From the NCBI RefSeq assembly GCF_902652985.1, contig NC_047025.1, positions 9,734,001 to 9,798,000 on the forward strand: a stretch of DNA of 64,000 nucleotides. Direction: 5' to 3'. Of this stretch, positions 2,902 through 52,600 are shown one piece after another. Positions within the stretch are counted from its first letter, which is position 1. Each line of letters starts with the position of its first letter. The position numbers and the translations under genes were made by a program. The notes under the pieces are model-generated. The model searched no databases and was not told where the DNA came from. It saw nothing but the letters and a program-made list of their open reading frames with translations. The stretch comes from Pecten maximus (Eukaryota).

Positions 2902-5900
2902 CTGAGGAATAAAGCACGTACAGAATCAAAGATGATATCTGTCTAACTCTCACCATACTTACCTTTTTTTTTTTTTTTTACAAAATAATACTTTATATGA
3001 TATATCTTAATTTGTCCTTTCTGGTGATTTAAATTAATTTTTCACAAAATAACAATGAAGTTTAATTAGAATTCCTGCAGTATAAAGTTGAGGTTTAATT
3101 TGGGAGTCTGCTACCAAAATAGAAAAGATTGGTAAATATTTGATATAGGGTATATAATCAAAATTGAATGGTATCAAGCTAATTTAAGCAAATACAACTC
3201 TCAGTGATGATCAAAACTTAGCATTTTTACTTATCTAAGAAATCAATTATGGGTCAACATTAAAATCATTTATTTATTGCAAGACAGCAACAGATAGATA
3301 TTTATGTATAAATTGCTATAACATATTTCTGAAACGATCTAACAAATCACTTTTTCTGACACGATTCAATTAATTTTTAAATGTCTATAGATATACAGTT
3401 TAACTTATTTTTTCAGTGAAATTTAAGATAATAGCAGTTTCTTACACTCAAAACACTAATACCGTTATTTGTAATAGTGCATCCAAAAGCTGTTGTAAAC
3501 ACACTGAAAGCCAGTTAGCAACTCGCACTCAAAGATTGATATTCACATTCTGAAAGGCTGTTATAGACTTAAAATACACTTAAAATCTCTTTTAACATTA
3601 CTCAAACCGAAAGTCTGCTATTCATACAACAAAACCAAAATCTCCTTCAAAGAGTAAACTTTTATTTCATTTCTCATATATTGACAGGACAATGGCAGAC
3701 TTAGAGTGTTGATGGTAACTAAACCAAGATTAAGATTTTATATCAAATTTCACTTTTATAATTTATTTATCAATGAAAAATTTTCAATGTTTAACTGCAA
3801 AAAATCTTTGTAGATTATCTGGCCTGATTTTTTCCACATATTCCTTTACTTAAATTTCTTTCCAAGGAAAGCTTATTGGATTTCGGAAAAAATCTCAGTT
3901 AACAGAAATTTTATTACATTCTGTAAAGCCTTCCCATAGGAAATTTTAAGTTAAGGAACATTGATGAAACAGAGGCCTGATCATACATAGAACTGAAATT
4001 ATAGACTGCATAACAATAAATTATTCTACTAAATGGTGCACACTTACGGTTTCATACTAAGGAGATCATTGACCGGACTGGAAGGTGAAGAGGCTTTCTT
4101 GCCACTGGAGAGATTGGAGGGTGTGAATGTGTACTGGTGATTCTCGAGTTTCTCCTCGTCCGTCGAGGATTCTGTTGTTAGACTTGTAGGGTGACTCTCC
4201 TCGGTGACTGTCTCTAGTTGTATCTTGACTTGTGCAGGGCTCCGATGCACATTGTCTAGTATATCCTGGGGCTGTACAGAGAGGAAATCTCTGGTCAGAT
4301 CAATAGCTAATGTTTCAAGGAATTATTGAACTCATTCGGTTAAGGTGCTCTAAAAATATCACCAATGACACTGAACGAATATTAAACTAGGAAGTAAATT
4401 ATTCAATTCCTCATCGACTTTATTATTATCATCCTTTAATACTTACACTAAGCTTGGACCCTCCTCTCATCGACTTTAACATCATCAACCTCTAGTACTT
4501 ACACTAAGCTTGGACCCTTCTCTCATCGACTTTATTATTATCATCATCCCCTAGTACTTACACTAAGCTTGGACCCTCCTCTCATCGACTTTAACATCAT
4601 CATCCTCTAGTACTTACACTAAGCTTGGACCCTCCTCTCATCAACTTTATTATTATCATCATCCTCTAGTACTTACACTTAGCTTGGACCCTCCTCTCAT
4701 CGACTTTAACATCATCATCCTCTAGTACTTACACTAAGCTTGGACCCTCCTCTCATCGACTTTAACATCATCATCCTCTAGTACTTACACTAAGCTTGGA
4801 CCCTTCTCTCATCGACTTTAATATCATCATCCTCTAGTACTTACACTAAGCTTGGACCCTCCTCTCATCGACTTTAACATCATCATCCTCTAGTACTTAC
4901 ACTAAGCTTGGACCCTCCTCTCATCGACTTTAACATCATCATCCTCTAGTACTTACACTAAGCTTGGACCCTCCTCTCATCGACTTTAACATCATCATCC
5001 TCTAGTACTTACACTAAGCTTTGACCCTCCTCTCATCGACTTTAACATCATCATCCTCTAGTACTTACACTAAGCTTGGACCCTCCTCTCATCGACTTTA
5101 ATATCATCATCCTCTAGTACTTACACTAAGCTTTGACCCTCCTCTCATCGACTTTAACATCATCATCCTCTAGTACTTACACTAAGCTTGGACCCTCCTC
5201 TCATTGACTTTAATATCATCATCCTCTAGTACTTACACTAAGCTTGGACCCTCCTCTCATCGACTTTAACATCATCATCCTCTAGTACTTACACTAAGCT
5301 TGGTTCCTCCTCTCATCGACTTTAACATCATCAACCTCTAGTACTTACACTAAGCTTAGACCCTCCTCTCATCGACTTTAATATCATCATCCTCTAGTAC
5401 TTACACTTAGCTTGGACCCTCCTCTCATCGACTTTAACATCATCATCCTCTAGTACTTACACTAAGCTTGGACCCTCCTCTCATCGACTTTAACATCATC
5501 ATCCTCTAGTACTTACACTAAGCTTGGACCCTCCTCTCATCGACTTTAACATCATCATCCTCTAGTACTTACACTTAGCTTGGACCCTCCTCTCATCGAC
5601 TTTAACATCATCATCCTCTAGTACTACACTTAGCTTGGACCCTCCTCTCATCGACTTTAACATCATCATCCTCTAGTACTTACACTTAGTTTGGACCCTC
5701 CTCTCATCGACTTTAACATCATCATCCTCTAGTACTTACACTTAGCTTGGACCCTCCTCTCATCGACTTTAACATCATCATCCTCTAGTACTTACACTAA
5801 GCTTGGACCCTCCTCTCATTGCCTTCAACATCTCTGTCCTCTGTTCCATCATCAATGTTCTTTCATACGTGTATGCTGATATATCATTGTTAGCCTGTAA

Positions 5901-8900
5901 AAAGAACTCATTTAAACATTTTCCACAAGAAAAGTTAAAAAAAAATTGACACAGTTTGAGCTTGATTGGATATCTTTTGAGAGTGTAAATGAAAGATAGA
6001 TAATTTTTTGCAATGTTATGATGGAATGGAAACATAATAATATGATGCCTCGGTTATTTTACAGAACATTTGATTGGTGAATGTCTTGATTATGACACAA
6101 AACTTTTGATTGGTCAATATAATGCCATGGTTAAGCTATAGAACAATTGATTGGTGAATGTCTTGATTATGACACAAAACTTTTGATTGGTCAATATAAT
6201 GCTATGGTTAAGCTATAGAACAATTGATTGGTGAATGTCTTGATTATGACACAAAACTTTTGATTGGTGAACCTAATGCCTTGGTTATGTTACAGAACAT
6301 TTGATTGGAGAGTTGCCTACCATTTCCACAACCTCGACCTCTGCCTCTATTCTCAGGTGATACATAAAGATCTCCAGGTCTTTCTTCATCTGTATAGTGT
6401 TATCCTCAAGTTCTGGTCTCAGCTAAGGATTTTTATTTTATTGTATGTTGAAAATTATCTTTCTAGAAATGAAAATTTTGTGGTTGCACAATATCAGTTT
6501 CTTACAAAGAGTAGCATTTTCCTCATTTTTTTTACAAACAAACATTATTTCAAGTAATAAACACAAATCTTAATGTTACAAATCCTGCACTATGATACAT
6601 GGTATATCAAAGTGCTATACAAAAGGATACGAGCCACAGTAAATATCCTCAGACGACAATTCTTCCACACTTTATGTTGTTTCAGCAGGAACGGCAGCAA
6701 CATCAACATACCTCCATCATGTAGTCTAGTTAAGGAAACTTCCTATTCATTTATCAACCAATAAAGATAAATCATAAAACATCTGCAGATATCATACAGA
6801 TATTTCTACTCTTGTTTTATCTGTGGGATTAGATTTCTTCAAGATATTTCTTCTATAGTTATACATCTGGTGTCCCTGCCAAATGTGACATTATCTGACT
6901 ATGATGTTATTCAAAAGTATCCATGGTGATGTGACAGGGTCAGCCTTGCCAATAGTCTGATACTTCTCCAAGTTCTTGTATGATCTCATTACCACATTAA
7001 GACTAAAACAACAGGCTGATGGGCCTAGTCATGAAGATTATAAGACTCTTTCATATGTGTATATGTAGGATAGGGATATTCCACCCGAGGGGTCACAAAA
7101 TATGGTGAAACCCGAGGCTTGCCGAGGGTTTTACCACATTTTGTGATCCTGAGGGTGGAATATCCCTATCCTACATACACACATAATGAAAGAGTCTTTT
7201 TCTCTCATATCATTACCGAATTTCTGGCGAAAGTGTCCCTCAGCCATCCATTTTCTTCAATTTTTTAATTTCTTTATTTGACGTTTTTACTAAAAATACT
7301 TGTGATATTCTGAAAGATCATACCATCTTTTGGCAAACTAAGTTTGCACGCAAATTTTATTCATTTTGTGGTTAAGTGATAAACGAATGAACAGTTCGCC
7401 GATAAAAATTACCGTAACTTGACCGACTTTTTACGTGGCGGTGATCAAATTGTCAACATCCGAGAAAAAGAAGTTCTATCAACAATACTGAAAGCCAACG
7501 CCAACGTTAAAATGAGTTTTCAAACTTTACATATAATTTGATTTGCACCTCGACATATTTAATCATTTCACAGAACACACTGTACTTTTAATTGTCAAGT
7601 CAATTTTTTTTTATAAAATACTACGTCACTGCATGACGTCACGACTGTCATTGGAATTCCATTCATAGTTCAAGGATATTGAGAGTGATGTCGATCTTGA
7701 TCGCCATGACGCGGCGATGTTTCGTGGCTGGTAATTTTAAATTCACTGTGATTTTGGCAACTTCGTGTGTGAACCAGCGAACAGTGACTCTATACGAGTA
7801 TTCGATCTTTTCTGTGACATAGGATTATATGTGTTTAATCGGTTGTCTTGATGGAATGACGAAGGTAGGTCAGTCGATAACGATGATCATATTGAAAGGC
7901 TAAGATGACAGTTAGTTTTCATGGTTACTATACACAAATATAGACTCTGAGTTACAATTAAAATAAATATTTTTATATGAACATCGAGGGGTGTCATTTT
8001 TACCGAATGTTCGTTCATTTAAGAGCCAATTCCCAACTTCCAAATACACAGGTTACTGAGTAGGCCTAACAGTTACTGACAGTAGGCCTACAGACTACAG
8101 TAGAGTAAACAATATTCCGCTCAGATGAAATGTCTAATCGTTAAACCATGTAGCCCTATTGCTTTCTGCTGATATGATATATATTTATCTAAGAATGTAT
8201 GTATTTTTATAGTTAAGTCCAACATTTCAAAACCGACACTGACGATAAGGACTGTCGGATGTAAACACAAGCAGACGACGTTGTGAGAGTTGTCCCCCTT
8301 GAACGCAGGTTACTCCGCGCGCATGAAATGCTATGTAAGATAGATTTATCTTACATGGGCAAACTCTATCCAACATGGCGAGATATGAGAGAAGATTTGT
8401 TTCAAATAATGATTTAACTCATCATATCTCTGTGACCTTGAAAGTAGATAAATATTGTTCATACCAGCAGGCTATTGACCTAATATCATGACCCTGGGCT
8501 CTTGCATGGTTATTGAAAATTACTTGTTAAATGATTTTAGCATATTTGACCTCTGTGGCAGGTCAAAGTCTTTCTTTTGAACAAATTTGGTAGTCCTTCA
8601 TCCCAGCATGTCTGATATCACGACCTTGAGCATTTTCGTTACTGAGAAGAAGTTATTTAAATAATGAAACACATTTGACCCTTGTTACTTAACAAGCAGT
8701 ACATTTGACATCGAATATATAAAGCTATCATTGATTGACCATATTTTTGTTGTTGTTGTTGTTTTTTTGTTTTGTTTATTTGTTGTCCATTTCTCAGCTT
8801 CCCGAAAACACAATTCAAAATAGGGGTAGGGAGTGTTGAACCACTCACCTCGGATCTCCACCTGAGATTATGTGGCTGCATGGGGCTCTAACTGACAGAG

Positions 8901-11900
8901 ACCTGAGATTATGTGGCTGGGGCTCTAACTGACAGAGACCTGAGATTATGTGGCTGGCACTCTGACAGAGCTATCGCGGCCCCTTAAAAATCACCATGTA
9001 AATGACATTTTGATAAAATATGCCTATCTACAGTGGACGGTTAGCGTTGGTATTTACCTAAGTCGACCTAGAAAATGCTACGCTATAGGCATTAATTTGT
9101 TATGTGCAATTCATTATGTATTGCAATTTCACATACAAATGATAGGGCTTCTGGTCGGGAATGAAAAACACTACACCATAGACATGAATTTGTTGTAAGA
9201 ATGTTCCTTATAATATGTATATAAATTGTGTGGATTAAACCCTGTACACAAACTTGTATATATCGGATCACCTGTAGTATCTATATTTAGTATCTATTAA
9301 AAGGATATGGACAATCCACCATACATCGATAGTGCCCTTCAGTTTCCCTGCACTCTGGGGGAAGTTGTTGATGCCTTTCACAGCTAGTAATGCCATTTGT
9401 CCAGCATTTATATTTTTTACGGATTCTGAAAGAATTTGGCAAAATATGAAGTCAATGATGCGAAAAGGCATACTTTTAGCATAGACACTGCAATTAGCAG
9501 TAATACTTCAGCACAATACTTTCCAATGTAAAAATGTGCATAAATGAAATTTACACTAACATCATGAATTTTGATTAAACAGTTAGATATGACACATGAT
9601 TCCATTCACAGCTAATTCTTACAATAATTTTTCATCTAATTACTTATTATTCTTTAATTCAAACAATTGCCATCAAAATTTCTGATAGCTGATATTCTAT
9701 CACATACTAATTTTTCAAAGGTTTTTTTTATTTTGTTTAACATCCTTTTAACAGTCTGGGTAATTTAAGGATGTGCCAGGTTTTGGAGGTGGAGGAAAGC
9801 CGGAGTATCCGGAGAAAAATCACCAGCCTCTGGTCAGTACAAGGCAACTTCCCCATGTGGCCTTCAAATGGGGCAGTTGCCTGGTATTGACCGTAGGCTG
9901 GTAGTTTTTCTACATATTAAAATCTTGGATACCGGGATGTAAGCTTACCTAGAAACACTCTGTAACTCTTGGCATTGTGATCGTGTCTCCATCCGTACGG
10001 CCAGCCAATCATCACCGTGTTGTGTCTCAGTCCACCAAGACCAGCGTTCTGTATCCTGGAGAAAAGAGGATTCTCAACACCAATTCTTATCATATGTATA
10101 ACTCAGTCACCAGATTCCTGGAGTTTCATAAACATTCCTTAAACTAAAACTTTCCATGTGAAACATGATGGAATTCATTTATTAAGATTTTTTCCCTTAA
10201 AACTCAATAGTGCTTTCCGTTGAAACATTTTAAGTTAAGGAATATTGATGAAACGGGTGTCTAATCCAACTTTATATTTTATTCAAAGTTACAAAGAACT
10301 GAAGTAAAATTTCAACTAACTTGTAAACTGGCCATTCTAGTCGTGGCCAGTTAATAATAAATATCTATCTTAAACCTTAAATGCTATTTTCACAACATTA
10401 ATTGTACACATTATTCAATATACAAGTCCTTACATGTGACACAGCCCCTCTGTTACATTGGATGATATCACCAAATCAGCGAATCCCTTCACTCCAGTCG
10501 ACTCCACCAGCTTTGTCAGAGTCTGAAACAAACCAACAATTTAATTACACATCACTGGATCAGGGTACATACACCTATAAGCATGTGCACTAGAACCCCA
10601 AAAGGAAGAATAACTTATTTTATATAGACTGACTTTGTAAATATATCTGATGAATCTATGGAGCTGTCTGTGGGATCTGACTGACGGTCTGATATATACA
10701 ATTTTGTGTACAGGGTTTTGATAAAACAGGTTTTAAACTACACAACACAGCCACACACTATTATCTCCAATTTAACCCTAATTTTGATCTTATAGACATT
10801 TTAACGTTATAAACTGAAATATTTACTCATCCAAATTAAGTCCGACACAAATTATCTCAATCATTTCGCACAACATTTCAACGCTGAATAGTATCTACTG
10901 CTCTTCTATCAAAACGAGAAGAAGATTTTGTGAAATTATACATTACACAAAATCTTTCCTTAACCAAAATGAAATCCCACAAAATAAACTGTACATTGGT
11001 TGTCATCAATGTACAAAATATTTTCTAAAGACAACACTGTACTTTGGGCAAGACACTTTGACATACTAGTGTGGAATGCATGTGACAACTCTCCCATATG
11101 TTATTCAGTGAGGGAGCCACCAGCTACTACAATTAGTAGTGTACATGTCAAAATGATACTGACAATTTATAGGGCAATATCCCTAGTAAACAAACATACA
11201 AGACAACTAACCTGTTTTGCGGCCTGGGCGTCAGCATATCTCTCCTTGAAGTCGCCTTCCACAACACTGTTGACCAGGGTCAAACCTTTTCCTGTGGTAC
11301 AATATAAAGTTTGATAAAAGACTCTACTGGACATCTATCCTGCAGTGGGGACTGTCCACCAATCCATATAACACTTAAAATACATATTTCAGTACTTTTT
11401 GCTCCTAAATCAGGTTGGGAACTCTCTTGAAAAGTCACGACAATCTTGATATTTTAAGACTATTTTGTATTTTACAATTGAGATTGCCCAACATAGAAAA
11501 TAAATAAACTTTTGGATTTTTGTATATTTGATTGATATGAACAACTTTTGTTTGAACAGTTTTCATTTTTGGCTAATATCTTGGTTTTTACAGCTTCCAA
11601 AAAACTGATTTTGGAAGCTATGAAATTGGTGAATATCATTTTACCTGCTTTAAGCTGACTTGCAAAGTTGATCATGTTTGGGTATTTTGGCTGTAGGTTT
11701 TCATCGAGTTTCATTAGAACCAGGATCTGAGGTCTGAAAAGAAATATAACATGGAAATGTATTCAGTGGTTCTATAACATGATTCAAAGTTTTATAATTG
11801 AGCTGTTCTTACCAATCTCCCTACAATCTTCATACTTTTGTTGACACGACTAACGTCGTTGAAGCTAAATCTAAGAATAGGTGGGAAATGATGGGATTCC

Positions 11901-14900
11901 TATATAGAATTTAAATACAGTTCCTGGAAATTACTCGAGTCCTTTCTATTTTTTATTATTTGAATTAGCCTTATAATTCAAATAATTTGAGTTTTACCCC
12001 CAATTTAGATTTAAATTGGAACTAGTACAACCCTGCACCTATGGGGATTCCCCAGGGGGTTCGGTTATCACTATGGATTGGAAATTACAAAGTTAATTCC
12101 CAAAGGTACTTCAAGGTATAATTCTACAGAGTAGCCTCTAAGAATGCCAAATATCTATAAGGTGTTGATATGAAAGTAGAAGTGAATCTTCCGCCTGTGA
12201 CAATTATACCACAAACAATCCTTGGTTGCCCCAGTGTATAGTGAATGACTCTACCTACCTCCAGTTTTTGGTATGGGGTGGACCCTGTTGTAGCCTCAGG
12301 AGAGAATATCTGGCCGCAGACATAGCCAAACCCCGGATTCCATCTCCCCACTCTTTCTCTGCACTGTCAACACAAATATTACACATAATCATATAATTAT
12401 TAATCATTTTAACTCAAGGCAGTGTGGCTTGTATATCTATGTCAAATATTCCCTGTTACTCAGATGACAGATTATCCTTAATAAGGCCATTACACCTCAG
12501 ACCTGGGTTTAATTCAGGGACACTCAGCATTTTCGAGTACTGAACACTTGTTAAATTCCACGAGGTTAATATTTTGCCAATGTTCCTATTGAATCAGTCC
12601 TAGTTCATGGATAATTAAGTCCATACCATTCTGCCTGGTAAACATTCTGCTGTAAATTTTTGTATAAATATACACTGGGTAATTATTTCTGTGCTTTGTT
12701 TGGTTTAGCGCCCTGTGAACAGCCAGGGTCATTTTCAGGTGTGGTATCCTTGTAGTAGTTGGTAACTACCTCACTGAACAACATACAGGAGGATAGTTGT
12801 GTGTCATCCAGAGTAATTAGGATAAAGTGTCTTGCCTCTGGACACAACCACAACAGCACAGACCAGCCTGTTTCTCAGCTTCAGGAGAAACATAAATTGA
12901 CATGGGTAGAAAGCTTCAAACCGCATACATGTACCTAGTATCCTCACCAGAGGTTACATGGCCAGCACTATAACCAACTGAGCTATCACGGCTCCACTGT
13001 ATGCAAAGAATATGAGTATGTAATATTGGAATATTGTAGTTATAGATATGCGTAGGACTTACCCTTTGTACTCTATATACTTGTAGATGAAGGCTGCGAG
13101 AGCGATGGCAGCCAGGGCGTAGTACCAACTTGATATAAACATAAGGGTGATACACAGGGCCATACCGATCAGTGACAAAACCCTGAAACACAACACAATA
13201 TATAGGTCAAGGTCGTACAAATCAGTGACAAAACCCTGGAACACAACATAATGTATAGGTCAAGGTCGTACAAATCTGACAAAACCCTGAAACACAACAC
13301 AATATATAGGTTTAGGTCGTACCAATCAGTGACAAAACCCTGAAACACAACACAATATATAGGTCAAGGTCGTACCAATCAGTGACAAAACCCTGAAACA
13401 CAACACAATAAATAGGTCAAGGTCGTACAAATCAATGACAAAACCCTGGAACACAACATAATGTATAGGTCAAGGTCGTACAAATTAGTGACAAAACCCT
13501 GAAACACAACACAATAAATGGGTCTAGGTCGTACAAATCAGTGACCAAACCTTGAAACACAACATAATATATAGGTCAAGGTCGTACCAATCAGAGACAA
13601 AACCCTGAAATACAAAACAATATATAAGTCAAGGTCGTACCAATCAGAGACAAAACCCTGAAACAAAACATAATATATAGGTCAAGGTCGTACCAATCAA
13701 CAACAAAACCCTGGAACACAACATAAGGTATAGGTCAAGGTCATACAAATCAGTGACAAAACCCTGAAACACAAAACAATATATAGGTCAAGGTCGTACC
13801 AATCAGTGACAAAAACCTGAAACACAATATATATGTCAAGGTCGTATCAATCAGTGACAAAACACTGAAAACATCATAATATATAGGTCAAGTTTATATC
13901 AATCAGTGAGAGAACCTTAAAACTGAACACAAAATACAGGTCAAGGTCAAACTGATCAAAGAGTGAACTCTAGAACAGCAAAATATAGGTCAAGGTCGTA
14001 TCAATTAATACTTACCAGTGATAAAATCGAAAGCGTGGTCTCCAGCTTGGTGTCCTCAGAAGGGTTTGTAGAGCACAGGCCATATTTACAAAGCCATAAC
14101 ACATCAGGAAAAACCTTAATAAACAAAATTTCAATCTTAAACATTACAAGGAACTCTCAGGAGACTTTTTTTGGTCAGTTATTCTGAACAAGATGGCATT
14201 TCAATGGAACCCAATTATTTGATATGAAAGTGATATCACTATCTTTACTAAAGTTCTCATTTCATAAAAAGTAGTTGATATTTCATATGTTCCAACTTTC
14301 AGTGTAATATTTAAAATGTTTTACTTCATTTTTTTCTTTCTTTTATAATCCATATTTTAGAGATTTGGATATAGTACTTACATTGTAATAATGGGAGCGA
14401 CGTCATCCAGACTGGCAATCAGGATTCCAATCTCTGATATAAAAACTGTCATGATGAGGGCTCTGAAGGGTTCACCCCGCTTTGTGGTTACACTGAACAC
14501 CTTGAGAAATGGGATCACTCCATCACTGCTGATGGCTTGTAGTAGTCGCGGCGCACCTGTGTCAGGTAAATAGATTTATAAGTAGTATTGAGAACCTTTT
14601 AATGTTCTATTTTTACTGAGATACACTATTAAATAATATCCTTTTTACTTTAAGGCTTGAAATGGGGGTCTCTCACTCTCTAAGTGGATGTCTATCACAA
14701 GTCCATTATAAGGAAGACTTTTTGGCAAAGATAATGATGTAGTGGATACTATGAGTTACTTCCCTTTGACAATGTAACACAGTGCATAATCAAGATGTCA
14801 TAAGAAAGGCATGTTGGGGCCATAATGGCATCAATACAATAGACATGATTGATATATTTTGAAATAATGGACCACAGAGCCCCACACCCATGGCAGTACG

Positions 14901-17900
14901 GAAAGTCTACATACCTGTTAGACTATGGAGCCCCACACCCATGGCAATACAGAAAGTCTACATACCTGTGAGACTATGGAGCCCCACACCCATGGTAGTA
15001 CGGAAAGTCTACATACCTGTTAGACTATGGAGCCCCACACCCATGGCAATACAGAAAGTCTACATACCTGTGAGACTATAGAGCCCCACACCCATGGCAG
15101 TACAGAAAGTCTACATACCTGTGAGACTATAGAGCCCCACACCCATGGCAGTACGGAAAGTCTACATACCTGTGAGACTATGGAGCCCCACACCCATGGC
15201 AGTACGGAAAGCCTACATACCTGTGAGACTATGGAGCCCCACACCCATGGCAGTACGGAAAGTCTACATACCTGTTAGACTATGGACCCCCACACCCATG
15301 GCAGTACAGAAAGTCTACACACCTGTGTGACTATGGACCCCCACACCCACGGTAGTACAGAAAGTCTACATACATGTGAGACTATAGACCCCCACACCCA
15401 TGGCAGTACAGAAAGTCTACATACCTGTGTGACTATGGAGCCCCACACCCATGGTAGTACAGAAAGTCTACATACCTGTTAGACTATGGAGCCCCACATC
15501 CATGGCAGTATGGAAAGTCTACATACCTGTTAGACTATGGAGCCCCACACCTATGGCAGTACAGAAAGTCTACACACCTTTGAAACTATGGAGCCCCACA
15601 CCCATGGCAGTATGGAAAGTCTACATACCTGTTAGACTATGGAGCCCCACACCCATGGCAGTACGGAAAGCCTACATACCTGTGAGACTATGGAGCCCCA
15701 CACCCATGGCAGTACGGAAAGTCTACATACCTGTGAGACTATGGAGCCCCACACCCATGGTAGTACAGAAAGTCTACATACCTGTTAGACTATGGACCCC
15801 CACACCCACGGTAGTACAGAAAGTCTACACACCTGTGTGACTATGGAGCCCCACACCCATGGCAGTATGGAAAGTCTACATACCTGTTAGACTATGGAGC
15901 CCCACACCCATGGTAGTACAGAAAGTCTACATACCTGTGTGACTCTAGACCCCCACACCCATGGCAGTACAGAAAGTCTACACACCTGTGTGACTATGGA
16001 GCCCCACACCCATGGCAGTATGGAAAGTCTACATACCTGTTAGACTATGGAGCCCCACACCCATGGAAGTATGGAAAGTCTACATACCTGTGATACTATG
16101 GACCCCCACACCCATGGCAGTACGGAAAGTCTACATACCTGTTAGACTATGGAGCCCCACACCCATGGCAGTACGGAAAGTCTACATACCTGTTAGACTA
16201 TGGAGCCCCACACCCATGGTAGTACAGAAAGTCTACATACCTGTGATACTATGGAGCCCCACACCCATGGCAGTACGGAAGTCTACATACCTGTGAGACT
16301 ATGGAGCCCCACACCCATGGCAGTGTGGAAAGCCTACATACATGTGAGACTATGGAGCCCCACACCCATGGTAGTACAGGAAAGTCTACATACCTGTGAG
16401 ACTCTGAAGGCCTGCTCCTAGTGTAGACAGGAAAGAGCCTATCAGGATAACCCATTCGTTAGGCCAGGCTAACTTGGCCACCACCAGACCTCCATTAATA
16501 CTTTCACCAAACCTGAAAGTCAAAAGGTTGTCAATACAACATCAAATAGCCCTTATAAGTCACATTCCTCATACAGAAGATATCATTTAGAAACCATCCA
16601 ACAGTTTTTTTTAATTGGAATTGGAAACATCCTTTTCCATCCTTTTCCTGTATTCAATGATAACATTTCAGCAGTCATTAATTAGATTCTATATCAATGA
16701 TTTATAATTTTGCATATTGATTTGTTCAAAAGAATCCAGTTGTACATAAAGAATGTTTTAAAAATGAAATACAGTTTCAAACTAATTATAAGCATTGATG
16801 TCAATATTTTTCAGCTTCATAGGGGTAGGTATGTAAACGTTTGTAAGAATCTGCTACGTTCCTCAAAACTAATGATTACAAGCTTCAATTATGCCTTTAA
16901 TTTGTGGATTTATTATGAATGAATTATGCTTACTATACTAATACTTACTTGTCTCTGAGGAGATCTCCTTCTACTGTCCCAGCAAAGAAAATTACACTGG
17001 TGATGTCTACAGGGGCTAAGGAATTTATCATCAATACAACATTTCTCAACACAGTCATCAGGCAGTTACAATAACTTACAGTTCTTTTGATCCTAATTCT
17101 AACACTTTTTTAGCCATCTTACTCATATGTTCTCAGCCATTCTAACTCTCATATTGTTTAGACATCCAAATTTTCAATTTTCTCTCCAATAATGCATAAG
17201 TTCTTTATAGGTCTGTTTGCTCTTTTTTTTTCTTTACATTGTTTCCTCATTTCAATTATTCCTGTTAGTTATAAAATAGCTCTGCAGGGTGCATGGTGTT
17301 ACTGTTTTAACACATACATCTCTAAATAAATCTTTTATTGTTTAACTGTCAACCTAAAGGATACAGACAAATGAAGTGGTTGCTATGGCGGCGATGGTAC
17401 CTGTTGGTATGGACCTGGAGGCATCGGCCAGATCGCCAGATCTGTTGGAACCCGCCATGATACCTGAAAGGTCAGAGGTCAAAAATAAAAATATTCTAAC
17501 AAAATTACAATGTAGTCAAGATATGCTACCTTGCTTATCAAGAAGACTTCTGGTATCAGATTACTGTTTATATTGTTGATATTTCTAAGTCATTTACCTT
17601 TGTGAATCACAGTTATTTATATGCTATACCCTTATTGCACACGGTTATAAGAATTACCACTCTCACAAATGTCAAATATATAAAGAATATTAACTATATT
17701 ATGTAAAATATTGGAGAGTCTGAGGCAGTAGTTCCAAAGACTATCTATCAAATATTTTATATGATAGAAACTTTGAAGTTTTACCTTACTTAACACTAAA
17801 TGGGATGTGGTTTGATACATTTTAAATGTTAAGCTAGTATTTACCTGTACAGGAAGGGAAGTAAATAGCCAATAACACCATGAATGATGACGTAACATCG

Positions 17901-20900
17901 GCTATGATTTCAGCTTGGGATATACTGCTCTCATCCGTACCAATGATTTTATCCTTCCTTGTGTACTTGTTGTTCAGATTTCCTGGAAAAATAAAAATTA
18001 CCACAACTCACTTGAATTTTGTAAAAGATTGTTTCTGTAAATTCTCACAACAACCTTCCATACAACAAGCATTATGAATACCAACACAGAAATTACAGAT
18101 ATAGTATTGTCAAAGCAACGAGTACCAAATATTATCCAATAATGGGCCAAGATTAATAGAATCTAACATGGGTCTGTTCCGTGGACAGGGATTTCTCCCA
18201 TACTTCACAGGGGTATCCGGCGGTTGCTAGGGAAAAGATAAATCCGTCTTGCACAGGGTCGGTAAAGACAGCCGGCACGCGCTATATGATGCTGCTCACA
18301 AAAACGTAACGTCATCATTTTACGTTGAGTAACCAAGTCGTAAATAATGACGCCGTAAATTTTGACGCACATTCTAAGGAGCATTGAAGATGGCGTGATG
18401 AACAACTTTCATTAAAACTTATGTTTGGTTGCAAGCATGTGAGAAAAAGAATCAATCACGGGTCTGTTCCACGAACAGGGATATCTCAACCCTCGTGTAA
18501 GCCTCGTGCTGACTGGCCAAACTCTTACACTCAGGTTGAGATATCCCTGTCCACGGAACAGACCCGTGATAGATTTTATTAATCTCAACCCTCTTTCAAG
18601 AGTTTGGCCAGTCAGCACGAGGCTTGCCAAGTACTACGTAGTGGCCAGTCAAATCTTACACGAGGGTTGAGATATCCTTGTTTGCGGAACAGACCCATGT
18701 TTTCTCACATACTTGCAAGCAAATGTAAGTTTTTATGAAAGCTTTTCATTGTGCCATCTGCAATGCTCCCTGGAATGTACGTCAAAATTGATGACGTCAT
18801 CATTTACGACATATTTACTCAACATTAAATGATGACATTATGTTATTGTAAGCAGTGTCATATAGCATGTGCCAGCTGTGCAACAGCTTGTGTGACATTG
18901 ATTTACCTTTTCCCTAGCAACCGCAGGATAACCCTGTGAAGTATGTGAGAAATAAACTTTACAAATAGACTTAGGTACTGCATGTCAATGAAGTAGTATT
19001 ATTTATTTGCATTTTCACTACATTGGCTGATATTTACAGAGAGTGGGGCTTATCATCAGGCATATAGGCCTATGGTTACATAAAGACTGTATGTAAAATG
19101 CAAACTTACTGACAAAAACACCGCTGCTGAGACCAGGGATCCCTGGTATCGTCCTTGCCGAGTGTTCCTCGAAGTAGTCTCCCCGACAGTCTGTTGTACC
19201 ATTGTATACAGTACAGTAACTTGAGAAAATACCTCCGCTAATATTTGGGTTCTTTGAGCACAGAAACGTCCCATTCGATTCCACCACTTTCGATGACATC
19301 AGCCGATCTCCTAATATACATACACTGCAACAAAATCAAAACAGGTCAACTGGACATCTAGCATAAAATTAACAGGTCAGCTGGTCATGTAGCAACAAAA
19401 TTAAAAGCCTAGATCATATTCACTATAGCCACCTGATGACGTTAGTCCCGGTTTCTAGAGGGGGAGAATACACAGCCATCCAATATGAAATTTACCTCAA
19501 TATATGCAAAGAATAATCTAATTTACATCAGAAACAGTAAATTTTTAGAAATTAATTCTTCCCTCTCTTGGATTATTTTGGTAGCTATCTGTACCACTAC
19601 AAACTTACTGTGGTGTTGACTGAAGAGAAGTCTCGGTTTATGATTCTGGGAGCTATCATGTGGTACCACTACAAACTTACTGAGGTGTTGATTGAAGGGA
19701 GGTAACTCTTCACAAGTTAGTTCAAGTATCTTCCCAATAGAAATGTTTTCTCAATTTATTCAGTTTCAAAATTATACATTGTCACAAAATGCTGCATCAA
19801 ATGAGGTATCGATCATGCAATTTGGCTGTTTGATGTTTTAATTCTTAAACACTTAATATAACACCAACATTACGAGCTGTGAGTAATGCTTGGTAAGTTT
19901 TAGGTAACCAGTGCCATAAAATGGTATGTTAATATACACTGTACCATAATCACACAATAAAACACTTTAAATCCAAGCAATAGTTTCAATAACTACAACA
20001 ATTAAAATGAATATAGCAGGTTGATAAGGTTGTGAGTTGTATTTATATATAAACAAAACATTTCTGTAATTAAATGACAAAAATTTCATAGCAAAAACAG
20101 TGCAGACAATCTGTTAAAAAATAATCGGTTTAGAGCTATAAATAAAAGATCACATAATAAACAAAAATAATTTTTATAACCATGAGCTTCAAAATCTTCA
20201 CTGCTTTTTATCCAATACACTGACAATCTATGATACTTTTTACTTATATTTATATTTAATCTTTGTCTCCAGAAAAATTTCAATTGATAAATCTTCAACT
20301 TATATTAAACGTCAGTGTCATTGTCATGGATTCTTAAAAACATGCATTTTTTATCAAAAAAGAAGAAAAAGTACAGACATTTAAAGAAATACTCAGTGTC
20401 TTATGAGTCCCACAAGAGTTGAACCAAGAAAGAGTAACATCCCTCATAAAAGATTATACAATTACTTAAAATCTCCCAGCATGATATGATTACAGTGTTA
20501 GTGATTAAAAACAATTGGAATTTTATAGAACATGAATCCAAGACACCATTTGATTCTCCCGCTGTGTACAAGTGTCAACCTCAAGAATAAGGAAAAGACA
20601 GATAGGATTGTTAGGGAGCTTGGGAAATAACAATTTTTCTCTGCTTTTTTCCCCATGGCTAGATTAAAAAGTTATCCGTTTATACAAATTACAAATAACT
20701 GAAATTATGTTTTTCAATATGATTTAAAGTTGAAGATATTCAACATAGAAGTGGGATTGCAGTGAACATACTGATAACTTAATGGAATTTCAACTCACTG
20801 TATCCAGATATAGTATGTGTTTAAATTTCAAGTTTATGACCCCTTTTAATTAAAAAAAAAAGAAAAAAAAGTTAATAATAAAAAAGCTCAATAACTAAAT

Positions 20901-45707: not shown

Positions 45708-48700
45708 TTTGATTTAAAAAAGAAAAACCAATAAGCCACGTACATTAAACATAAAGCTCTGTAAATCTACAACACAAAATTTAGATAGAATATCTGAAAT
45801 ACGTGACTAAAAACTTTTCCTCAGCTTTTCCTCAACAAATAATCATCTTTCCTGCCTTTAACTTTAACTTGCTAACATAAAACTGGCGAATTAAGTACAT
45901 CTACAAGATATTTGGCATGAATATAACAACAATTATATCAAAATATCTCCAAATTTAAGAGAATAATCACGTTTCCCGTTTAAAGAATCTGTTAATAGCT
46001 GATAAGAAATACTCCTTAATGACAATAATTGTTTATTATAGAGGAAATCCACTGGTAATTAACCCTTAACATTATTGAGAATTTGATGCTTCCTCGGTGT
46101 ATAGAATGTATACTTCAATAGAAGTTCTCTGTGTTAGCATTCATTTTACTGAGGTTTTTTTTGTCTTTGGAGATTTTTAACCTCAAACAGTTTAAAATCA
46201 TCTAAAAGTAGGGGAGGGCTTCATTACAGGATAAAGGAATACAAATATCATCCAAACATACAAAAAGGACAGGAGATCCCAGAAGAATATTGGCACCCAC
46301 CATTAAATGATCTTTATCAGTTCCATGAAAGACTGATCTTTTCTCTTCTTTTGTTAACTTTCCTCTTTTCCTCTTAATATGAAATTGGAGAAAGAGCAGA
46401 ACTTTTTGAGGAATACCGATGTTACAAACTGCCACTATCAAATTCATATAATCCACGAAGAACAAAATAATTTTAAAATAGCATTACACTGAACAAACTT
46501 CCACTGTAAAATTCCAATGGCCACCTATTGGCCATTTCGTTTTCCGATAAATCTCAAATTTCAATATACACACCTAGAGAACAGGAGTCTAAATTTGAGA
46601 AAGTTCCATGAAGAACTTTCTGAGAAATAGCGATAAAAATCCTCATTTCTCTCTTTTCATATGATGAACCACAGACAAACAATAACATCCACATAATGTG
46701 TCCTGATTAGTTGTACATCTATAAATCTATCAATCTGCATTTGTTTAATTCTTGGCTCAAACAAACTCCAATTAAAAGTAACGCTGAAGTGGATTTATGT
46801 CTAAACAACAAACAGATGTAGTTTACGAAAACCGACTTGGTTTGTTGAGTAAATGTAGAAGATCTACACAGATATATCTCCCTATAAAATGTCGGTAAAC
46901 TGTTCCAGCAAGAAATTTAACCAGCATTCTTATTGCTTTGCCAAAATGGTAGAAATCGCTAGAACTGGAGGTCATCAATTGGTTTTCAAAATAAACAAAA
47001 AGTGGAACCGGGAGGGCTCAGCAAGTTCAACCTTTGACCTTTTAACCTTGTCTGGTGATTACCAAAATCAATTGTAGACCTGGATGGTGTGACGCTATCA
47101 TGTGAATACCAACAAAATCTGTCCAGGGGTTCATGAGATGTACATATCATACATATATATACAATGTACTTCTTTTATTTTAAAAGTGGTCATCATTTGT
47201 AACCTTTGACCTTTAAAGACTGAAGATCACCAAATATACTGAAAAAATGATGTTGTATGAACTAAATCTGTCCAAAGGTTCAAGAGATGATCTTGTCCAC
47301 ATATTAGCTTTTAAATTTCACAGACAGAGCTGCACACATGCAGTAGATACCGGTGGTACACATGGTATCTTATTTAATCAATCACAAGGTCAGGCCTAAC
47401 ACCGTCATACCTGTCATGGCTGAAGGTAAAAATTTCATCTAGATATCTGACAATACCATCTGTTACACAAATCTGTTTGGGACAGCTAGTTCAAGGTTAT
47501 CAGAAAAGGATTATGTTGCACATTAACGATCTCAAAACCAAGGTTTGATATCTCTTCTGTAGTTCAGCAGGTACAAATCTTTCAGTTCATTTTGTTTTAG
47601 AAAATTCAAAATTAGAAATTTCTTTAATTCTTGTTCCACAAACATAAAACATGTCCTTCAGGTTTGTATTGGATTAAATGTAACGTTTTGGTGACTAAAC
47701 TCTTTCACAAAATTTTGTTTGATAACCTAATTTTCAAAACATTCTTTCACAAAATTTTGTTCAATAACCCAATTTTCATAACAATCTTTCAAAAAAATTT
47801 ATTTGATAAGCTATTTTTCAAAGTCTTTATTTTTCTTTTTTTTTTCTTTTTCTTTTTCTTGGGTTGGGCCTTGGAGAGGGGGTGGGGAGAAGGAAACTGG
47901 GCCTTGGGGGAGGGGGTGGGGAGAAGGTAACTGGGCCTTGGGGGAGGGGGTGGGGAGAAGGTAACTGGGCCTTGGGGGAGGGGGTGGGGAGAAGGAAACT
48001 GGGCCTTGGGGGAGGGGGTGGGGAGAAGGAAACTGCACCACCATTCCTTCAATACATAAAAAATTGAGCAACATTTTACATATTCTCTTTTTTTAACAGT
48101 AGAAGCTCAATCCTTTTAACAAATCCAAGATTAGGAAATATTACATTGTTCCACAAACCTATAAACGTCGGGAACTGAAATGCACATTAATATAATCACC
48201 CACTCCTCGATATATACACCTTGTATATATGTACACCACATTCCTGGATTTCATCTACTTCACGATAAAAGCTGTGAATTTTTAACAGTCCCCAGGCTAT
48301 AAAATCCCCATCATCCGTTTTTCCATTATCTATAAATGTAACCAAATCAAGAAGATGCTGGCAAAGAAATGCATTTTTACAATGGAACGGTGACGAGATT
48401 GGCGTAAATTTCCAAAGAGGTTATCAATCAGGGATAAACAGCAGTGATATATATATGGTATATGCAGCAATAATTCCATGCCTAAGTACAAACATTTAAG
48501 TTGAAGTACACGTCACACACACATATCGGGAGCCACACCAGGCATCCAAGTACACCTCCCCCCTGAAGACCCTTCAAATCTCTCAACAAAAAATTCCAAT
48601 ATTTACTAACAATGCATGCTTCCAGATGAAAAAAGGCTGAAAACAGAGATTCCAATAATCCACATCTGTTCAACTTATAAATCTGGTATCGACAAAAGGC

Positions 48701-49612: not shown

Positions 49613-52600
49613 TTTGATTAAAAAAGAAAAACCAATAGCCACGTACATTAAACATAAAGCTCTGTAAATCTACAACACAAAATTTAGATAGAATATCTGA
49701 AATACGTGACTAAAAACTTTTCCTCAGCTTTTCCTCAACAAATAATCATCTTTCCTGCCTTTAACTTTAACTTGCTAACATAAAACTGGCGAATTAAGTA
49801 CATCTACAAGATATTTGGCATGAATATAACAACAATTATATCAAAATATCTCCAAATTTAAGAGAATAATCACGTTTCCCGTTTAAAGAATCTGTTAATA
49901 GCTGATAAGAAATACTCCTTAATGACAATAATTGTTTATTATAGAGGAAATCCACTGGTAATTAACCCTTAACATTATTGAGAATTTGATGCTTCCTCGG
50001 TGTATAGAATGTATACTTCAATAGAAGTTCTCTGTGTTAGCATTCATTTTACTGAGGGTTTTTTTGTCTTTGGAGATTTTTAACCTCAAACAGTTTAAAA
50101 TCAGCTAAAAGTCGGGGAGGGCTTCATTACAGGATAAAGGAATACAAATATCATCCAAACATACAAAAAGGACAAGAGATCCCAGAAGGATCTTGGCACC
50201 CACCATTAAATTATCTTTATCAGATCTTTCACTGATCTTTTCTCTACTTTTCTCATCTTTCCTCTTTTCCTCTTAATATAAAATTGGAGAAAGAGCAGAA
50301 CTTTTTCAGGAATACCGATGTTACACACTGCCAATATCAAATTCATATAATCCATGAAGAACAAAATAATTTTAAAATAGCATTACACGTAACAAACTTC
50401 TACTGTAAAATTCCAATGGCCACCTATTGGCCATTTCGTTTTCCGATAAAACCTCAAATTTCAATATACACACCTAGAGAACAAGAGTCTAAATTTGAGA
50501 AAGTTCCATGAAGACCTATCCGAGAAATAGCGATAAAAATCCTCATTTCTCTCTTTTCATATGATGAACCACAGACAAACAATAACATCCACATAATGTG
50601 TCCAGATTAGTTGTACATCTATAAATCTATCAATCTGCATTTGTTTAATTCTTGGCTCAAACAAACTCCAATTAAAAGTAACGCTGAAGTGGATTTATGT
50701 CTAAACAACAAACAGATGTAGTTTACGAAAACCGACTTGGTTTGTTGAGTAAATGTAGAAGATCTACACAGATATATCTCCCTATAAAATGTCGGTAAAC
50801 TGTTCCAGCAAGAACTTTAACCAGCATTCTTATAGCTTTGCCAAAATGGTAGAAATCGCTAGAACTGGAGGTCATCAATTGGTTTTCAAAATAAACAAAA
50901 AGTGGAACCGGGAGGGCTCAGCAAGTTCAACCTTTGACCTTTTAACCTTGTCTGGTGATTACCAAAATCAATTGTAGACCTGGATGGTGTGATGCTATCA
51001 TGTGAATACCAACTAAATCTGTCCAGGGGTTCATGAGATGTACATATCATACATATACTTCTTTTATTTTAAAAGTGGTCATCATCTGTAACCTTTGACC
51101 TTTAAAGACTGAAGATCACCAAATATACTGAAAAAAAGATGTTGTATGAACTAAATCTGTCCAAAGGTTCAAGAGATGATCTTGTCCACATATTAGCTTT
51201 TAAATTTCACAGACAGAGCTGCACTCATGCAGTAGATACGGTACACATACATGGTATCTTATTTAATCAATCACAAGGTCAGGCCTAACACCGTCATACC
51301 TGTCATGGCTGAAGGTAAAAATTTCATCTAGATATCTGACAATACCATCTGTTACACAAATCTGTTCGGGACAGCTAGTTCAAGGTTATCAGAAAAGGTT
51401 TAAGTTGCACATTAACGATCTCAAAACCAAGGTTTGATATCTCTTCTGTAGTTCAGCAGGTACAAATCTTTCAAAATTAGAAATTTCTTTAATTCTTGTT
51501 CCACAAACATAAAACATGTCCTTCAGGTTTGTATTGGATTAAATGTGACGTTTTGGTGACTAAACTCTTTCACAAAATTTTGTTTGATACCCTAATTTTC
51601 AAAACATTCTTTCACAAAATTTTGTTCAATAACCCAATTTTCATAACAATCTTTCAAAAAAAATTATTTGATAAGCTATTTTTAGTCTTTATTTTTCTTT
51701 TTTTTTTCTTTTTCTTTTTCTTGGGTTGGGCCTTGGGGGAGGGGGTGGGGAGAAGGAAACTGGGCCTTGGGGGAGGGGGTGGGGAGAAGGAAACTGGGCC
51801 TTGGGGGAGTGGGTGGGGAGAAGGAAACTGCACCACCATTCCTTCAGTACATAAAAAATTGAGCAACATTTTACATATTCTCTTTTTTTAACAGTAGAAG
51901 CTCAATCCTTTTAACAAATCCAAGATTAGGAAATATTACATTGTTCCACAAACCTATAAACGTCGGGAACTGAAATGCACATTAATATAATCACCCACTC
52001 CTCGATATATACACCATGTATATATGTACACCACATTCCTGGATTTCATCTTCTTCAAGATAAAAGCTGTGAATTTTTAACAGTCCCCAGGCTATAAAAT
52101 CCCCATCATCCGTTTTTCCATTATCTATAAATGTAACCAAACCAAGAAGATGCTGGCAAAGAAATGCATTTTTACAATGGAACGGTGACGAGATTGGCGT
52201 AAATTTCCAAAGAGGTTATCAATCAGGGATAAACAGCAGTGATATATATATGGTATATGCAGCAATAATTCCATGCTTAAGTACAAACATTTAAGTTGAA
52301 GTACACGTCACACGAATATCGGGAGCCACACCAGGCATCACAGTACACCTCCCCCCTGAAGACCCTTCAAACCTCTCAACAAAAAATTCCAATATTTACT
52401 AACAATGCATGCTTCCAGATGAAAAAGGCTGAAAACAGAGATTCCAATAATCCACATCTGTTCAACTTATAAATCTGGTATCGACAAAAGGCCTTGAGGG
52501 CCTGTGTGGATATCTTCATACTTGAAGGTTCAGAAGGATGCTATCAAAGAGCATGTGGAAGGACTTGGTGTCTGTAAATATAAGACTGTAGCTAATTTGT

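Follow-up and report, generated by a model that had tools for sequence, protein, structure and literature searches.

Introduction

The closest described relatives of the array considered here are the 'mirage' minisatellites of amphioxus, in which an intron-exon boundary, of either the donor or the acceptor type, is present as tandem copies that keep its splice signals while splicing itself remains intact (PMC3087553). The unit sizes reported there range from 10 to 160 bp, and the features described include concerted evolution, in which boundary or far-end units are excluded from homogenisation, together with haplotype length differences and somatic instability (Adh3) (PMC3087553). The genes named as carrying mirages are Adh3, those of the globins BflGb6 and BflGb9, troponin C and PGBD5 (PMC3087553, PMC3902484).

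What determines which of several like boundaries is spliced? For acceptors, the human data described in PMC9225289 point to an exon-centric proximity rule, and in the same account competing human 3' sites still lean towards the upstream site, less so with long introns, such that cross-exon proximity alone may not give a clean choice. In the beta-globin intron 1 constructs described in PMC5389562, where the 3' site was duplicated together with 14, 55 or 205 nt of exon, only the distal site was used and splicing was inefficient.

A comparable array occupies an intron of a K-Cl cotransporter gene of the scallop Pecten maximus, within the window analysed here, a stretch of 64,000 nucleotides (G000:C11:9734001-9798000). 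The repeated unit spans the boundary, joining the intron end to at least 15 nt of exon in 16 copies, and with a length of 48-53 nt it is of minisatellite size. The splice signal is kept in many copies, given that an AG is present in 15/15 spare units and that 14/15 spare sites score above the 10th percentile of predicted acceptors, and regular splicing is undisturbed in 4/4 RNA contig sets, contigs being unable to exclude rare isoforms. Units 5-16 carry 0-8 differences from the majority unit against 8-17 in units 1-4, which is the pattern of concerted evolution minus boundary units. The scallop array is an acceptor mirage, a known type of repeat, and its splicing is confirmed by RNA.

The host gene

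The product of the host gene, P0007, is the Pecten maximus SLC12A4-like protein (the name as given by the source), which maps exon by exon to the minus strand, with 26 coding exons, 23 of which lie inside the window. The exons on both sides of the 833-nt intron match P0007 letter for letter, and a 62-residue exon from the window is a 100% match to scallop SLC12A4/6-like K-Cl cotransporters. The main features are collected in Table 1.

Table 1. Coordinates of the acceptor array, its flanking exons and the two donor arrays (positions in the window)
Feature	Position	Strand	Basis or remark
Upstream coding exon, 99 nt, SLC12A4-like gene	14016..14114	-	Exact spliced match to P0007; RNA contigs
Host intron, 833 nt, phase 2, GT-AG; non-array part about the first 10 nt (donor) only	13183..14015	-	
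Coding exon of 120 nt downstream, with a strong donor at 13062; the unit's exon part derives from it	13063..13182	-	
Units 1-4, decayed far-end copies, AG and branch-like motif retained	13800..14004	-	8-17 differences from majority unit
Units 5-15, well-kept copies, each a spare acceptor	13219..13799	-	0-8 differences from majority unit
Unit 16, working 3' splice site and first exon bases; AG at 13184-13183	13166..13218	-	RNA joint
Second mirage, 30 x 51 nt, repeats donor at 16393 and ~41 nt of exon end	14877..16403	-	Distal exon likeness p about 0.001
Third mirage, 25 x 56 nt, repeats donor at 5795 and ~49 nt of exon end	4410..5832	-	Distal exon likeness p < 0.001

Several other features of the window were recorded. 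Three introns of the same gene (17364..17007, 9308..6721 and 6630..6413 on the minus strand) have branch-like motifs near their 3' ends, and the middle one is AT-AC; their donors are presumably of the minor-spliceosome (U12-type) class, a label taken from consensus motifs. A decayed repeat at 19327-19404, with 2.4 copies of 31-33 nt, stops 3 nt away from the acceptor at 19325, whose branch-like motif and tract it duplicates, and is probably a small or old acceptor duplication. Near-identical blocks of at least 2 kb at about 46150-48500 and 50200-52300, some 3.9 kb apart and with the same small repeats and ORF-like frames, are a local duplication within the long first intron. The next intron holds a high-copy dispersed repeat (12700-12990) whose very deep RNA contig cover originates from other loci.

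Anatomy of the acceptor array

The array consists of 16 head-to-tail units, which in the alignment run on the minus strand from about 14001-14004 to 13166 and fill about 820 of the 833 intron nucleotides, with the last unit continuing into the exon. This bears out an earlier note on the same DNA, which had described the intron as almost wholly made of some 16 copies of its own 3' splice site and had proposed a unit sequence that is indeed the majority unit of the alignment. Each unit of about 53 nt contains a branch-like motif, a pyrimidine tract, an AG and the start of the exon. TRF reports the repeat at 13163-13948 with a period of 53, 15.0 copies and 85% matches, and a 23-nt core allowed up to 3 mismatches has 13 matches in the window versus 0 in each of 100 shuffles. 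The AG lies at or beside its register in every spare unit, while the branch-like motif at -25 is present in the real site and in most of the well-kept copies and has been lost in units 10 and 14. The branch A of unit 16 is predicted, from a match to the motif, at 13207 (-25).

The unit is confined to this locus, as had been expected: BLAST of six units, in a search that skips very common words, matched the array only, and all five matches of an exact 19-nt pattern in the whole genome lie inside it. The array is neither a dispersed satellite nor a transposon-borne repeat. It is present in 3/3 DNA runs, where some unit variants recur among contigs, none of which spans the array. Run X5 has different unit variants and one contig joint, 13660/13885, with the middle unread. 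A loose end at 13957 in run X4 was considered as another allele and rejected, as it joins at GATC to G000:C11:2345190, which is 7.4 Mb off on the same contig, and looks like a library ligation junction.

The exon part of the unit is exact over 15 nt, and positions +16..+28 match the exon in register at 9/13 places (p 0.002, with end points picked after looking), whereas positions +29..+53 do so at 8/25, near chance. By this comparison the exon share probably extends past 15 nt to about +28, a limit immediately adjoining position +29 of the unit, where the branch A is predicted. Exon likeness past +28 is weak (p 0.04-0.06 for the majority unit; p 0.002-0.003, uncorrected, for the best of 15 units), and derivation of the entire unit from the first 54 nt of the exon, which is borderline only, was set aside with +29..+53 near chance.

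Selection of the last acceptor

The acceptor in use is the last copy, as the earlier note had held. The joint 14015/13182, which employs the last AG, is found in the contigs of 4/4 RNA-type runs with cover (a fifth run, X11, is without cover), and the contigs of these four runs list no joint into the array, contigs being prone to drop rare isoforms. Of these runs, X6 and X7 seem to be duplicate filings of a single data set, leaving about three that are independent, and three of the four are only guessed to be RNA or are unlabelled as such. Loose ends in high-depth RNA at 13269 and 14317 are short matches from other transcripts and were left out.

The strength of the competing sites was compared by means of a weight matrix trained on predicted sites from the scallop genome. 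The real acceptor scores 13.4, a value that 7/15 spare sites equal or exceed; 11/15 spare sites lie above the median predicted acceptor score, and between -36 and +15 unit 13 has the same sequence as the real site. Since the spare sites match the real one in local strength, the core 3' signal cannot choose between them and the deciding information lies downstream. Here the last site is set apart, for it alone is followed by the full exon body and by a strong donor (score 10.7) 120 nt on. Cross-exon pairing of this downstream donor with the nearest acceptor is, on these scores, the likely mechanism of selection. In translation, all 15 wrong acceptors lead to a stop within 4-39 codons, two in-frame sites included, and because every wrong choice ends in this way, decay of the wrong products could hide leaky use. 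It had been proposed that exon definition must select the site; exon definition fits, given that local sequence cannot pick, but 'must' is too strong when leaky use could be hidden. As for the observation that 53 nt is not a multiple of 3, the stronger point is the early stop at 15/15 spare sites, including the two in frame.

Two donor arrays in the same gene

Two further mirages of the gene repeat donors, and most of each of their units is derived from the exon. The sequence of P0007 requires the first donor in both of these arrays, donor use being read from the protein match. Neither has a gradient of divergence (rho -0.22 and 0.16). Mirages are therefore present at 3/50 splice sites of the SLC12A4-like gene, and the two donor mirages beside the acceptor array in one gene are new here.

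Frequency of splice-boundary arrays in the scallop genome

The frequency of such arrays was estimated from exons found in three family searches of the genome (myosin, kinesin and kinase), excluding the SLC12A4-like gene and covering 766 kb. The rows kept were 80/82 for myosin and 127/134 for kinesin, with small, duplicate-looking contigs dropped, and 101/136 for kinase, with mostly long single-exon matches dropped. Prediction of the splice sites relied on the family match together with the weight matrices and made no use of RNA. For a site to count, its 20-nt boundary word had to recur at two or more places up to 400 nt away on the intron side, and at none on the exon side.

Arrays are found at 11/194 donors in myosins and kinesins and at 5/87 in kinases, a total of 16/281 (5.7%), with a regular period in 14 (5.0%, interval 3-8%). 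Acceptors carry them at 3/187 sites in myosins and kinesins and at 3/91 in kinases, a total of 6/278 (2.2%), or 7 sites counting one mis-picked copy (interval 1-5%). Among random intronic positions the corresponding figure is 196/10,993 (1.8%). Donors are thus enriched about threefold over intronic positions (p 6e-5 for 16 sites, 6e-4 for 14), p values that are optimistic given that the draws cluster by locus, while acceptors have no excess over the same background (p 0.38 for 6, 0.23 for 7) and the direct comparison of donors with acceptors is not significant (p 0.18). A test based on the ends of TRF arrays agrees with the k-mer test, with 10 seen at donors versus 3.3 expected (p 0.002) and 4 at acceptors versus 4.7 expected. 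Mirage anatomy is present at 22/559 sampled sites. The genes concerned are unrelated and the units range from about 25 to 60 nt, which suggests a mutational by-product of a general kind. One would expect a high base rate, since tandem repeats are described as the most abundant repeat class of another scallop, at 11.3% of its genome (PMC5700196). That the scallop array is a rare oddity is not supported, since its class is a named one, found three times in the SLC12A4-like gene and, in the sample, at a few percent of splice sites. A search of the open-access literature brought up no mirage frequency for any mollusc.

The sampled arrays differ in composition and state. Further acceptor mirages of 45-54 nt lie at C14:4990407 (L176), C13:13379444 (L233), C18:1784265 (L099), C1:55296260 (L090) and C12:28894635 (L200). 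The unit at C14:4990407 comprises about 38 nt of exon and 16 nt of intron, so that its working branch region must be exon-derived sequence. The intron part of the unit varies widely among sampled arrays, as judged by eye, and the idea that it always equals a minimal splice signal was dropped. Boundary arrays in which the copies have lost their AG or GT, or have diverged from the exon sequence, were seen by eye at C3:27244580 (L119), C19:16748545 (L097), C5:46332545 and C5:46330929 (both L040) and C11:17194125 (L091/L056), and may be mirages at a more advanced stage of decay. A kinase exon is flanked by mirages on both sides (C12:28894309-28894635, L200), and one kinesin gene has three acceptor mirages (C18:1784130-1788052, L073 and L099, with C18:1738507). 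Arrays may cluster by gene.

Alternative explanations

With respect to the history of the array, the divergence of its units had earlier been described as a decay towards the 5' end of the intron and taken to suggest directional growth from the exon. The decay of units 1-4 is real, with 9-16 differences from the last unit against 1-9 in units 5-15, but it is a step rather than a trend: distance and divergence are correlated when all 15 spare units are taken together (rho 0.63, p 0.011) and not within units 5-15 (rho 0.06, p 0.85). One-way growth, in which new units are added at the exon end and age rises steadily towards the donor, is favoured by the four most decayed units being the farthest, by the position of the closest pairs (11/15, 12/13 and 13/16) in the exon-side half and by the scarcity of arrays with at least 3 decayed end units, found in 4/75 of those sampled, although the far-end decay here is marked, not unique. 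Against this, adjacent units do not resemble each other more than units four positions apart do (6.4 vs 5.1 differences), derived variants are common to non-adjacent units (6/11/15 and 10/14), the two donor arrays of the gene are without a gradient, and far-end decay in amphioxus is read as exclusion from homogenisation (PMC3087553). The directional growth of the earlier note is therefore not upheld, and as a strict model one-way growth is weakened and unlikely; a weak form of it, in which recent events favour the exon side, may still hold. Variants are also common to units 7 and 8, and together with those of 6/11/15 and 10/14 they suggest mixed single- and multi-unit exchanges. A four-unit block duplication (10-12 to 14-16) is suggestive and not significant (permutation p 0.18), and the idea that spare sites close to the donor had been lost selectively was rejected given the signals that units 1-4 retain. 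A birth of the intron itself by duplication would suit an array that begins about 10 nt after the donor with almost no older intron body, as it would the likeness, seen by eye, of the upstream exon end to the unit's exon part over about 11 nt. However, a simple duplication model needs the first bases of the intron to match the downstream exon start and its last bases to match the upstream exon end, and neither does. If nothing has been deleted the ancestral intron would have been about 50 nt long, and loss of an older intron body is more likely. Origin of the unit from a mobile element is at odds with its having no other copy in the genome, and an assembly error with an array carried by the DNA contigs of three runs in which individual unit variants recur, so that this group of explanations has very little to commend it.

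Other explanations concern what the spare acceptors do. They could serve as a dosage dial, being used at a low or regulated rate with their products destroyed, such that copy number tunes transporter output; the strength of the spare sites and their early stops would suit such a role, as would the sequence variants that differ among DNA runs, and repeat length is described as tied to splicing at many human loci (PMC10078293). This is nevertheless improbable, with the alternative joint absent in 4/4 RNA contig sets, unrelated genes carrying the same structure at a few percent of their sites and acceptor arrays no more frequent than background. A masking of the spare acceptors by RNA structure, with only the last left open, initially draws on a region whose fold is better than that of 20 plain shuffles (z -5.3) and on the prediction that each spare AG lies in a hairpin with the branch-like motif of the next unit. 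The real acceptor, however, is predicted in the same hairpin and is no more accessible (-9.6 kcal/mol vs -7.4 to -10.2 in units 3-15), and the folding energy is ordinary versus shuffles that keep the repeat (p 0.20), under which null the z of -5.3 is gone; RNA structure was rejected as the selector, and its chances are accordingly very low. Stepwise removal of the intron via internal acceptors, by recursive splicing or through 17-nt micro-exons, is the least credible of all. A recursive-splicing site is an internal AG followed directly by a usable donor, and although each unit has an AG with a weak GT 17 nt later (score up to 4.1), a GT comes directly after the AG in 3/15 spare sites only, with donor scores of -1.4, 1.8 and 3.7 that are under the 10th percentile (5.4) of predicted donors, so that no usable donor follows an internal AG here. 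A 17-nt exon would moreover shift the frame, and successive exons of this kind would be separated by about 36 nt.

Origin and significance of the array

The preferred explanation, which is held to be quite probable, is that the array is a locus-specific minisatellite formed from the intron end and the exon start, that its last copy is spliced, likely through pairing of the downstream donor with the nearest acceptor, and that the array is likely a tolerated by-product without function. Its seed would have been one tandem duplication across the boundary, taking in about 25-38 nt of intron and 15-28 nt of exon, and the common variants suggest that the array grew through slippage or unequal exchange of one or several units at a time. 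Coding sequence may have held the exon end in place while the far end left homogenisation and decayed. In splicing, the spare acceptors would give exons of 173-905 nt that are full of further pyrimidine tracts, whereas the last acceptor would be favoured by the complete exon and donor beyond it, and wrong products, having an early stop, would be degraded, making leaks cheap and unseen. The neutrality of the array is inferred because mirages are common.

The locus offers a natural test, for with 15 spare acceptors, one of them identical from -36 to +15, the core 3' signal does not determine the choice. In itself it is ordinary for the mirage class, and the genome-wide rate and the donor excess, both resting on three gene families and predicted sites, carry more weight. 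A wider proposal, offered tentatively and with more doubt than confidence, is that across the scallop genome about 5% of donors and 2-3% of acceptors carry arrays (thousands of sites, if introns number on the order of 200,000); that donor arrays arise or persist about three times above ordinary intronic array ends while acceptor arrays do not, a gap that would reflect better tolerance of spare donors by the spliceosome; and that the working branch region here may be partly remodelled exon, such that mirages would rebuild 3' splice signals. If a few percent of scallop splice sites do carry arrays, they would represent (i) an extensive ready-made set for tests of acceptor and donor choice outside mammals, (ii) a cause of spurious exons when genomes are annotated and reads mapped, and (iii) a possible source of splicing variation between animals.

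Comparison with known systems

The scallop array resembles the amphioxus mirages in its tandem boundary copies, with the acceptor side included in both (BflGb6 in amphioxus), and in the normal mRNA that is made. It differs in scale, with 16 copies of 53 nt in the scallop compared to 3-6 copies of 150-160 nt in BflGb6, and in the extent of this mollusc array, which takes up nearly the whole intron, unlike the amphioxus mirages as these are described. A sampled frequency is given here for the scallop, whereas the amphioxus accounts name individual genes. As for the exon-centric proximity rule (PMC9225289), its basis is mammalian and not molluscan. The beta-globin constructs (PMC5389562) are like the scallop in that an upstream acceptor copy with a short piece of exon competes and the distal site is used, but they are artificial, with two copies spliced inefficiently in mammalian extract, whereas the scallop case is natural, with 16 copies ahead of an internal exon and its downstream donor. 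In the 37-bp VNTR of human F7 intron 7 (PMC1557585) the first unit spans the boundary, the identical 5' pseudo-sites are silent and the exon-adjoining site wins, as it does in the scallop. What F7 repeats is a donor, for which 5'-to-3' scanning picks the first site, whereas the scallop array has the last of 16 acceptors in use, which is not what a scan from the 5' end of the intron would give. It is the two donor arrays of the scallop gene that are the direct counterparts of the F7 VNTR, the tested donor case.
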